Part shown: positions 16,501 through 19,500 of the stretch, piece after piece | Position numbering within the stretch: position 1 is the stretch's first letter | Layout of the letters: each line of letters begins with the position of its first letter | From: Eledone cirrhosa | Lineage: Eukaryota | NCBI GenBank assembly: GCA_964016885.1 | Contig: CAXHJY010001108.1 | Coordinates: 1 to 64,000, forward strand | DNA: 64,000 bases | Reading direction: 5' to 3' | Position numbers and translations under genes: made by a program | The notes under the pieces: model-generated | Seen by the model: only the letters and a program-made list of their open reading frames with translations | What the model was told of the DNA's origin: nothing | The model's database searches: none

Positions 16501-19500
16501 CAGTGCATTACTGCTACCTTATTTTATCGACCCCGTAAGGATGACAGGCAAAGTCAACCTCGGCGGGATTTGAACTAAGAACGTAAAGGGAGTTAACTAT
16601 GCTGGAAGGCATGGCGTCCGACCCTCTACCGATACTGCCAATCCAAGCGAATCTGGTCCCTTACGCTTTGAACACATATATGTACATATCTGTGTTTATC
16701 TCTCTTTTATATATATATATATATATATATATATATATATATATATATATATATATATATATATATATATATATATATATATATATATATATATATATAT
16801 ATATATATATATATATATATATATATATATATATATATATATATATATATATATATATATATATATATATATATATATATATATATATATAAAATAAAGT
16901 AATTAAGTCAAATATTTAAAATTTGGCTTCGTTTATTAAAGATGTACTGCTATATATATTTCGGTGACAGCCATCATTGGCTGTGACCTCTTCAGGCAGT
17001 CCGAATTGGTGTGGTAGAGACAGGTACACATGTTGTTAAAGTATTTTACTCCGTCAATACTCCGATATGTCCAGCTCCTGGTTGTGTTGTTATTTCTCTG
17101 AGGAACTGGAATCTGCATACTGAGGTGTCGGTAAACAACCAGCATATACTCAATATATATATATATATATATATATATATATATTAAAATAGATTATTAA
17201 ACTTTAATCTGTTATTTTAATAAATATTTGCTCTAGGGTTCTTATATATTTGATATATATTTATCTTTGTCGAGCCCTCTTTGGATTTTAGTCTTCACAT
17301 TTATTAATATATATATATATATATATATATATACCAAAGTGTAATATAAGGTATATGTCAATTTTCACACCAGCTTATCGATGGGCCTCTAGTTCTTCTG
17401 AATTCTTAGTTGTTAAACTAATATGTAAGAAGCTGAATGTTTCACTGATGTTTATATGCTTAATGCAATTCGCTGTCCTAATCAGTGTGACACAATCACA
17501 ATGTGACATTACTAAACCTTTGAATTACAAATAGAATCCAAAGGGGAAGACCCATCCCCAATGGATTGGACTGGTAATATATTTATCTATCACCGAATAA
17601 TGAAATGTAATATTGGATTGAAATAGAGTGAAGAGAGCCAGATTTATAATGTGAGGATTTGTATCTGATGTTTTTACGAGCCCCTTAATTCATTATTGCC
17701 TTTCTTTGAAAGAATGAATAAATGAAATAAAATAAAATAAATGTAACAACGTTTTTACCTGCAGAAAATCTGCCATTTGCAGTTTGAAATCTTCGTCCAT
17801 AATTTCTACTTGCTTTGTAATATTTTGAATTTTCTTAGATAAAATCGAAATGTCACTTGTTAAGGACTCTATTGAAAATCTTAAAAAAAAAAAGATAGAA
17901 ATGGAAAGGAGAGAAATCAGAACATGGACACTTTCACAAAGAATAATAATCGAAACAGAGCTCGTCTGATCTCATGTATTCACACACACACACACACACA
18001 CACACACACACACACACACATGCAATGGACCCTCCGTTAGATTCGACAGTAAGCGTTCCAGGTTTTCGATCATGAACTTAGACTTTACAATCTTAGTTCA
18101 TCTAAGCAGATATTTAATCATAAGAATAGCTAATGACTCAACAAGTAACCAATGTTTATGTAAATGGAAAGATTGGTCTTCAAATACACCATACAAGGAA
18201 ATATCGAACCTACCAACGTGCTTTATAGTAATCTCTGCTTATATACCTTAAAAGTTAAAACAATTAAAGTCTGTCTCAAGCCCGGAGGCTCGTCAGGTCC
18301 ATACTTATCCCGGTTTCTGTGACTTGAAGTGATTGAGAGTACTAGACTCCCTCCAGCTATTGCTGCTACTCATTTTCAGCTCAGTTTACTGTAGCAACGT
18401 GAAATGAAGTGTTTTGCTCAAGAACAATATACAACCGAGCCCAGTAATCGAACCCACGACATTATGATCGTAAGTCCAACACTCTTAGCACTAGGCTGAA
18501 CCTAAATATATCATTAATTATTAATGTTTAGGCACATTTGTCGGCGGGAGAAAAGGATTAATGACCAATAACACATAATTAAGGCTAAGTATTAAAATCT
18601 AAATTTGAAGTCTAGTATTTAACAGGAACTTACTTTGCCGCTTCGTTTAATAATTTCATTTGATGTGGGAACAAGAGTAACCGCGGATTACGTTTTTCAG
18701 CTTGCTGTAAAAAAAGAAATATTTAAATGAAGTAATCCAAATTAATTATTATCATCATTATCATCGTATTGTCATTATAGGATCGTCATCAGCATCATCT
18801 TCATCACCATCACCACCATCACCACCATCACAACTCCCATCAGTGCCAACTTTTACAAATTCAAAATTATAGCATTTTAACAACAAGCACATGTTTATAC
18901 TGAGGGAACATGAACTGTTTTTAGATATTGTAGTGGGAACATAAAAAAAAAACGTTAAGAACCACTGAAGTAGAGGCTGTCAATGTTGGTAAATATAAGC
19001 ATCTTTAATGTAAGGTGTCAGATAAAATACCATTGCGGTATTTGTTCTGGCTCTTTACATTCTGGATGTCGATAGAATAAAGTAGTACTTAAGTACCGAG
19101 TCGATATAATTGACTTTTCATTTCTCTATAAAATGATGGATTCTAATAATTATGTAAATTCCTCAGACCTGCCAACCTAAAAAAAAACCCAAACGGGGAG
19201 TACCGTGAAAAAAATGCTTCATAACGGGGAGATATGAGGCAAAATAGGGAGATTTTATATAATGAAAGCTATATCCATTTTCTAAAAGAAGACATCTCTC
19301 ACTCTCCCCAAAGTGGGTTGGTGATCTCTCCGTCGGACAGGGAGAGTTGACAGGTCTGATTCTTCCTGAAGTTCGGAACTCAGTAATGACTTTGCCCTTG
19401 CTTTGTGCCTAAATTAGAAAACAATACTATGTGAATTGATTCAATAGAACAGAGGTCCGTCTGTTAAACGTTTTGATAACAAATTGCCTGGAACCAACTC

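Follow-up and report, generated by a model that had tools for sequence, protein, structure and literature searches.

A hammerhead ribozyme in a formin intron of Eledone cirrhosa, assigned from its sequence to the pseudo-LTR of a Hydra-clade PLE

Introduction

Does a hammerhead ribozyme that lies sense in an intron cut the pre-mRNA of its host gene, or is it a passenger of the element that carried it there? The question is raised by a preliminary description of a stretch of the Eledone cirrhosa genome (hereafter the window, i.e., positions 1 to 64,000 of contig CAXHJY010001108.1, assembly GCA_964016885.1), in which an intact hammerhead was noted inside a formin intron and cleavage was proposed to affect processing of the formin pre-mRNA. 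Here, we characterize the motif, the insertion that holds it, its family in the 3.0-Gb genome, and the activity that would be expected of it at this locus.

Results

The hammerhead motif and its host intron

Positions 16946..17000 of the window, read on the minus strand, hold all the elements of a type I minimal hammerhead. The 5′ strand of stem I, ACUGC (17000-16996), is followed by the core CUGAAGA (16995-16989; consensus CUGANGA), stem II (16988-16978 / 16973-16963, closed by an AUGA loop), the core GAA (16962-16960), the 8-nt palindrome AUAUAUAU of stem III (16959-16952; the predicted dimer interface and, as argued below, a feature of the element), A17 (16951), and the 3′ strand of stem I, GCAGU (16950-16946). 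Both the A15.1-U16.1 pair and an NUH triplet, here AUA, are in place. Each core element that had been described could thus be located on the minus strand, and the cut given for the motif, between 16951 and 16950, is at the correct position for the predicted hammerhead. Stem I is indeed a perfect 5-bp helix and stem II is indeed long, but only 10 of the 11 positions of stem II are paired, the preliminary description having left a C·C mismatch (16985·16966) unmentioned. This mismatch, at the fourth position of the stem, is kept in 39 of 40 aligned copies of the family and across subfamilies, with a G-C pair in its place in one copy (L092), and it may mark a tertiary contact.

The fold of the motif has a z-score of -3.05, with 3 of 200 shuffles folding equally well, and a strict hammerhead descriptor gave two matches in the real window as compared with none in 60 simulated windows. 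The hammerhead models of Rfam gave no match at the motif, either at the gathering threshold or at E≤10. At the level of sequence, we regard a non-chance type I hammerhead on the minus strand, sense in the formin intron, as confirmed.

The host intron (14695..17758, minus strand; 3,064 nt, GT-AG) separates an upstream formin exon (17759..17879, minus strand), assigned to the FH2 region by position and frame with no Pfam FH2 match of its own, from a downstream exon (14530..14694, minus strand) that holds the end of FH2 (Pfam E=6.6e-6, below the curated cut-off). The coding sequence ends at 17759 with a GT donor and resumes in frame at 14694 after an AG acceptor, which bears out the placement of the hammerhead between these two exons and its sense orientation. 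FH2 matches, all on the minus strand, lie at 14545-14703, 28569-28718, 32825-32995, and 36107-36358. Minus-strand formin pieces at 6407-10576, 36080-37279, and 53028-53246 comprise FH3, poly-proline FH1, and FH2, in what we take to be an INF2/FHDC1-like domain layout, and the last coding exon of the gene has 1,390 codons. When the genome was searched for a second assembly copy or an empty allele of the intron, the window itself alone was found.

A truncated element between TA tracts

The motif is part of a 266-bp insertion, a truncated copy of a Penelope-like retroelement (PLE) lying between two (TA)n tracts. Its direct part (16887..17113, minus strand) is the 3′-terminal 227 bp (3′ UTR end / pseudo-LTR, pLTR) of a 5′-truncated element of the Hydra clade, as assigned below; an inverted stretch of 43 bp (17110..17152, plus strand) derived from the optional tail of the element overlaps the direct part by 4 nt and agrees at 42 of 43 positions with the tail located after the pLTR in locus L051. 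The 3′ flank is a (TA)92 tract (16708..16891), 54 nt past the motif, and the 5′ flank a (TA)16 tract (17153..17184), the two being the putative halves of the insertion target. Forty genomic copies picked by their likeness to the query were aligned; they have a TA run at the same end in 27 cases and a tail in nine, i.e., there are two classes of 3′ end.

At 2 of 227 positions, both outside the ribozyme, the window copy departs from the majority of these 40 copies; given two changes in 227 nt, a 55-nt motif would be left untouched without selection with P = 0.61. Across the same alignment, 56 of 2,200 ribozyme cells (2.5%) deviate from the majority as compared with 177 of 4,503 and 92 of 2,032 cells in the flanks (3.9-4.5%). 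This lower variation suggests selection on the element lineage or its life cycle rather than at the formin locus, and within-genome comparison of the 40 copies gave no sign of locus-specific conservation.

Other repeats surround the insertion. Directly upstream, between TA tracts, lies a short repeat end (17197-17333; 375 first-look candidates in the genome), which has a short inverted end and resembles a second PLE-type tail. A dispersed repeat (16456-16670 and 34574-34645) has matches at several loci and is presumably an octopus tRNA-derived SINE; 34574-34645 gives a weak Rfam tRNA match (30.2 bits) and is a possible SINE head. On the plus strand, 27192-27741 holds broken transposase-like frames, which we take to be of mariner type.

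The family and its clade

Searching the genome with a 231-bp query yielded 2,292 first-look candidates, of which 40 were scored and found to be 90-99% identical to the window query. The exact 53-nt motif has 380 genomic copies (control 0) and its 23-nt 3′ half 3,525. In copies at least 95% alike over the 227 bp, the sequence continues through a UTR of ∼1.2-1.4 kb to coding regions for GIY-YIG and RT farther upstream (loci L020/L031, L022/L032, L033, L052, and L053), which ties an ORF with RT and C-terminal GIY-YIG to the hammerhead-bearing end, as in a PLE. The GIY-YIG of the long loci is a weak Pfam match (E=6.7e-4), and no intact ORF of the window's own subfamily was found among the five long loci examined, the frames being broken. 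The PLE layout (a pLTR or partial tandem, an inverted 5′ copy, and an optional tail) is seen in L051, L052, and L054; in L051 the order is inverted copy, pLTR hammerhead (1326), tail, RT frame, second hammerhead (4082).

L054 represents a sister subfamily, 81% alike over the stretch of the formin copy and with stem I, core, and palindrome shared. Its ORF (L054:1922-5890) is intact, encodes 891 aa that include a long low-complexity linker, and has a 3′ UTR of 1.2 kb. Numbered from the residue that precedes the first Met, this open ORF has RWK (36), DKT (119), YRDD, a CxCx5C linker (CNCRNPESC, 751), a GIY-YIG domain that lacks CCHH (IVYG 770 and YIG 785, no CxxC between them), CxxC (CKLC, 849), and CxH (CRH, 877), and it has no GxKF/Y. 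Since the Pfam RT family gives no match on the full L054 ORF, the RT call rests on these motifs. An RT query gave 38,567 first-look candidates in the genome, and the named homologues of the element protein are from Argonauta and the anemone Actinostola (three named eukaryote rows of 46).

The Hydra clade of PLEs is defined, as described in PMC8557442, by RWK, DKT, CxCx5C, the absence of CCHH, and the presence of CxxC and CxH, and its families, one of them from Octopus, have (TA)n targets and hammerheads (PMC8557442, supplement). The Eledone element has RWK, DKT in place of DKG, no GxKF/Y, CxCx5C, no CCHH, and C-terminal CxxC and CxH, and the window copy shows the (TA)n insertion of the Hydra type; the grouping was made from motifs and by-eye match to published alignment blocks. 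We therefore assign the hammerhead, by sequence, to the pLTR of a Hydra-clade PLE rather than to a locus-specific RNA, the element being a further member of a known group. The Neptune clade was rejected: CCHH is absent and CX2-5CxxC (C.{2,5}C..C) has no match. More generally, Neptune, Nematis, and Poseidon do not fit, there being no endonuclease CCHH and no CX2-5CxxC linker (Neptune, Nematis), nor does a non-LTR retrozyme, as there is a single copy in the contig and the family has an ORF. Remnants of related elements occur elsewhere in the window: at 25162-25767 (minus strand), the C-terminus of a Hydra-type endonuclease of another family (CNC linker, YIG, CxxC, CxH; no Pfam match), and at 21869-21956, beside TA runs, a tail 77% identical to L054 and without a ribozyme.

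Stem III and its length variants

The preliminary description read stem III as (UA)n. The self-complementarity it noted is there, the stem III region (16951..16959, minus strand) consisting of the palindrome AUAUAUAU plus A17, but the region is not a piece of the local microsatellite, as it is shared by 3,525 genomic copies. With identical flanks, the region is 9 nt long in these 3,525, at least 11 nt long in 167, and 7 nt long in nine (i.e., stem III slips at a low rate, with 167 longer and nine shorter forms). Among the first 100 of the 167 expanded matches, 89 have 11 nt and 11 have 13 nt; in the window's own subfamily, a 9-nt region is seen in 99 of the first 100 of 369 matches, and 82 of these 100 are exact.

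A hammerhead descriptor that did not require a palindromic stem III gave 14 matches in the whole 155,634-bp contig as compared with 0.3 expected. Stem III is self-complementary in 13 of the 14, and its sequence varies; palindromes of other families in the contig include AUGAUCAU, AUGCGCAU, and ACUAGU, and an A/U-only stem III with an AUA triplet is also present in another of these families. As judged from these sequences, AUAUAUAU belongs to the element as its form of the palindrome usual in PLEs, and what is under selection is self-complementarity rather than the repeat. Moreover, because the contig carries ∼1 hammerhead per 11 kb, an intact, sense, intronic hammerhead is to be expected.

Many families are represented among the hammerhead-like motifs of the contig (L106-L115). 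Within the window, 54389-54454 (plus strand, antisense to formin) is the hammerhead of another repeat family, with stem III AUAUGUAU and an AUA triplet, 419 first-look candidates, and related copies in inverted pairs. The hammerhead at 56354-56413 (minus strand, sense to formin; stem III ACCA-c-UGGU) resembles the published Hydra-1_Obim motif and has a degenerate second copy 4 kb away (60422-60481, minus strand). At ∼18270-18300 (minus strand), CUGACGA followed by a small hairpin, with no GAA, is possibly a decayed hammerhead.

The A/U-only, AUA-cleaving stem III and the lengthened copies appear from sequence to be new variants, unpublished as far as our literature searches show, and are small new points: a search on stem III slippage found nothing, and one on octopus and hammerhead ribozyme had Craig et al. 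as the sole relevant title among those listed. Modelled closure of the monomer is 0.006 at 9 nt, 0.05 at 11 nt, 0.25 at 13 nt, and 0.38-0.46 at 15-17 nt (the 17-nt value being from L059, a copy with a stem I change); L054 and L059 fold into non-hammerhead dimers in the model. Lengthening of stem III is thus predicted to favor cleavage by the monomer. It is conceivable, though on balance we doubt it, that stem III is a slippage-tunable switch, in which the 9-nt form is dimer-dependent, some of the 167 expanded copies are active as monomers and can cut transcripts of the host, and cut RNA ends may prime TA integration; the formin copy would then be two slippage steps from a self-standing hairpin state. 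In a tree of 30 expanded copies together with 9-nt copies, the expansions carry several flank types; as the 9-nt rows are mostly of one subfamily, the tree is compatible both with slippage that followed insertion and with amplification of 11-nt masters.

Five matches run on into (TA)n, four of them ending in the AU run (L057, L058, L060, and L061) and one being an expansion, and of four matches to a start in the AU run, one is a real start (L063) and three are expansions. Four ends and one start among ∼3,700 copies are too few for ribozyme-cut ends to be the normal ends for integration, and microhomology deletion explains the copies that end or start in the AU run equally well; ribozyme-cut RNA ends may prime integration at TA targets occasionally.

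Predicted folding

In the modelled monomer, stem III is barely formed, the A15.1-U16.1 pair having a probability of 0.006, a value that nearest-neighbor models underrate, as they omit the tertiary energy of the core and Mg2+. In genomic context, stem I is contested by an upstream segment of the element (modelled P 0.009-0.34). The motif differs from canonical monomer-active type I hammerheads in its unstable stem III, its 5-bp stem I (canonically 6 bp), and the 11 positions of its stem II. When two copies are cofolded, the minimum free energy structure is an exact double hammerhead (-42.4 kcal/mol), as the palindromic stem III of a minimal PLE hammerhead permits; the earlier suggestion that the ribozyme could be completed by dimerisation thus finds support in the model. 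The predicted dimer is weak (Kd ∼0.2 mM, i.e., 2e-4 M), and no partner copy of the ribozyme is present in the 155,634-bp contig.

Discussion

Very probably, the formin motif is the pLTR hammerhead of a young, 5′-truncated Hydra-clade PLE, and it is likely to be a passenger by which the pre-mRNA is seldom cut. A transcript of a full element would contain two pLTR ribozymes on the same strand, and pairing between their AUAUAUAU palindromes would yield a double hammerhead that cuts after AUA, possibly aided by the element's own protein; the two pLTR ribozymes of L051, 2.8 kb apart, could dimerise within a single transcript in this way. The formin copy is single, and its stem III would consist of two A-U pairs on a 4-nt loop; because it has no partner and only these two pairs, cleavage in the intron is predicted to be slow. 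Formin splicing probably continues unaffected, and the proposed effect of the ribozyme on splicing or processing is, on the sequence, unlikely. Published minimal PLE ribozymes, that of S. mansoni among them, are described as showing no cleavage as monomers and low cleavage as dimers (PMC4209133, PMC6765202). The Anolis Poseidon hammerhead is reported to cut only with its protein and to be dispensable for insertion in vitro, and RNA-seq read ends were reportedly not found at its site (PMC11167929). Introns cut by hammerheads are still spliced (Dye 2006, Fong 2009, as cited in PMC2995048).

Some monomer activity of the formin copy is possible by analogy, since short-helix-III hammerheads of the axolotl and a canonical coral hammerhead cut as monomers, the former (1-2 bp helix III) at 6-22% per hour and the latter efficiently (PMC7229834). 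It is a larger step, and an improbable one, from such slow cleavage to a monomer whose core stabilises a stem III of 2 bp and which cuts the nascent formin pre-mRNA often enough to lower or reroute formin mRNA. The intact core and the sense orientation are in keeping with it, and the reported depletion of retrozymes from Xenopus introns hints at a cost of intronic copies, yet 42-44% of retrozyme copies are still intronic (bioRxiv 10.64898/2026.07.22.740005). Against it stand the A-U identity of both stem III pairs, the upstream competitor of stem I in the model, the persistence of splicing in hammerhead-cut introns, and the 11 positions of stem II, as compared with the canonical 4 bp that support loop-loop contacts (PMC4209133).

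Cleavage in trans, whether transcripts of the ∼3,700 other copies serve as pairing partners or the RT protein of the element assists, is very improbable. Two copies do form an exact double hammerhead in the model, and compatible genomic copies number in the thousands, but nuclear RNA levels are far below 0.2 mM, so the modelled Kd far exceeds them, and the stem I sequences of the gene's other hammerheads do not match. Protein assistance has been reported for another PLE, but the formin copy has neither the direct tail nor the start of the ORF, which make up the region that the Anolis protein requires (PMC11167929).

There is minimal likelihood that cleavage is regulated by the neighboring (UA)n tract through completion or blocking of stem III, as had also been proposed. 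Tract and stem III are complementary and 54 nt apart, but the (TA)92 tract forms a hairpin of its own (-100.9 kcal/mol), and in the three modelled contexts with both tracts the probability that it pairs with stem III is 0.000-0.035. The partner of A15.1 has to be the U next to the cleaved bond, so that closure of the core by an outside (UA)n strand is geometrically impossible, and TA flanks are generic to the family (27/40); the proposal of help or competition by the tract is thus not supported. That the motif is an exapted, host-selected ribozyme, as the amniote intronic hammerheads or CPEB3 are, has next to no chance of being right: the gene is conserved and the motif within it is intact and in sense orientation, but an untouched motif is expected anyway at two changes per 227 nt, and the motif is identical to 380 others in a genome whose hammerheads come, in this contig, at ∼1 per 11 kb.

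Like the Hydra clade, e.g., Hydra-1_Obim of Octopus bimaculoides (Craig et al. 2021, PMC8557442), the Eledone element has RWK, DKT, and CxCx5C, lacks CCHH, and has CxxC, CxH, a C-terminal GIY-YIG, a (TA)n target, a type I hammerhead near the 3′ end with a palindromic stem III, a tail, and an inverted 5′ piece. Unlike Hydra-1_Obim, it is a separate family with another hammerhead sequence; it is ∼4.2 kb long, with an 891-aa ORF and a 1.2-kb 3′ UTR, as compared with less than 3 kb for the published Hydra elements, and its stem III takes the form AU…AU, the triplet being AUA, as compared with AC…GU in each of the 26 Hydra rows of File S2 (PMC8557442). With the minimal PLE hammerheads (Cervera & De la Peña 2014, PMC4209133) it shares a 5-bp stem I, a long stem II, a palindromic 15.2-16.2 region, a G10.1-C11.1 pair, and a genomic occurrence mainly as single truncated copies with some inverted pairs. 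Like non-LTR retrozymes, it has a type I hammerhead within a repeated element, but it is the single truncated end of a coding element rather than a 170-400-nt tandem unit, and their canonical 6-bp/4-bp helix architecture is absent (PMC7229834). The amniote hammerheads and the HDV-like CPEB3 ribozyme are likewise intronic and sense to their host genes; these are conserved host-gene features (reviewed in PMC6765202), whereas the formin motif belongs to a young transposon copy that has thousands of counterparts.

The formin locus is itself of little importance. The family, however, constitutes a natural allelic series (stem III of 7, 9, 11, 13, 15, and 17 nt) with intact ORFs in a sister subfamily, a series on which ideas about the role of PLE hammerheads, and about the reason for their lasting dependence on dimers, could be tested. 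If expansion does turn copies into monomer cutters, microsatellite slippage would convert dead transposon ends into RNA-cutting sites in host genes.
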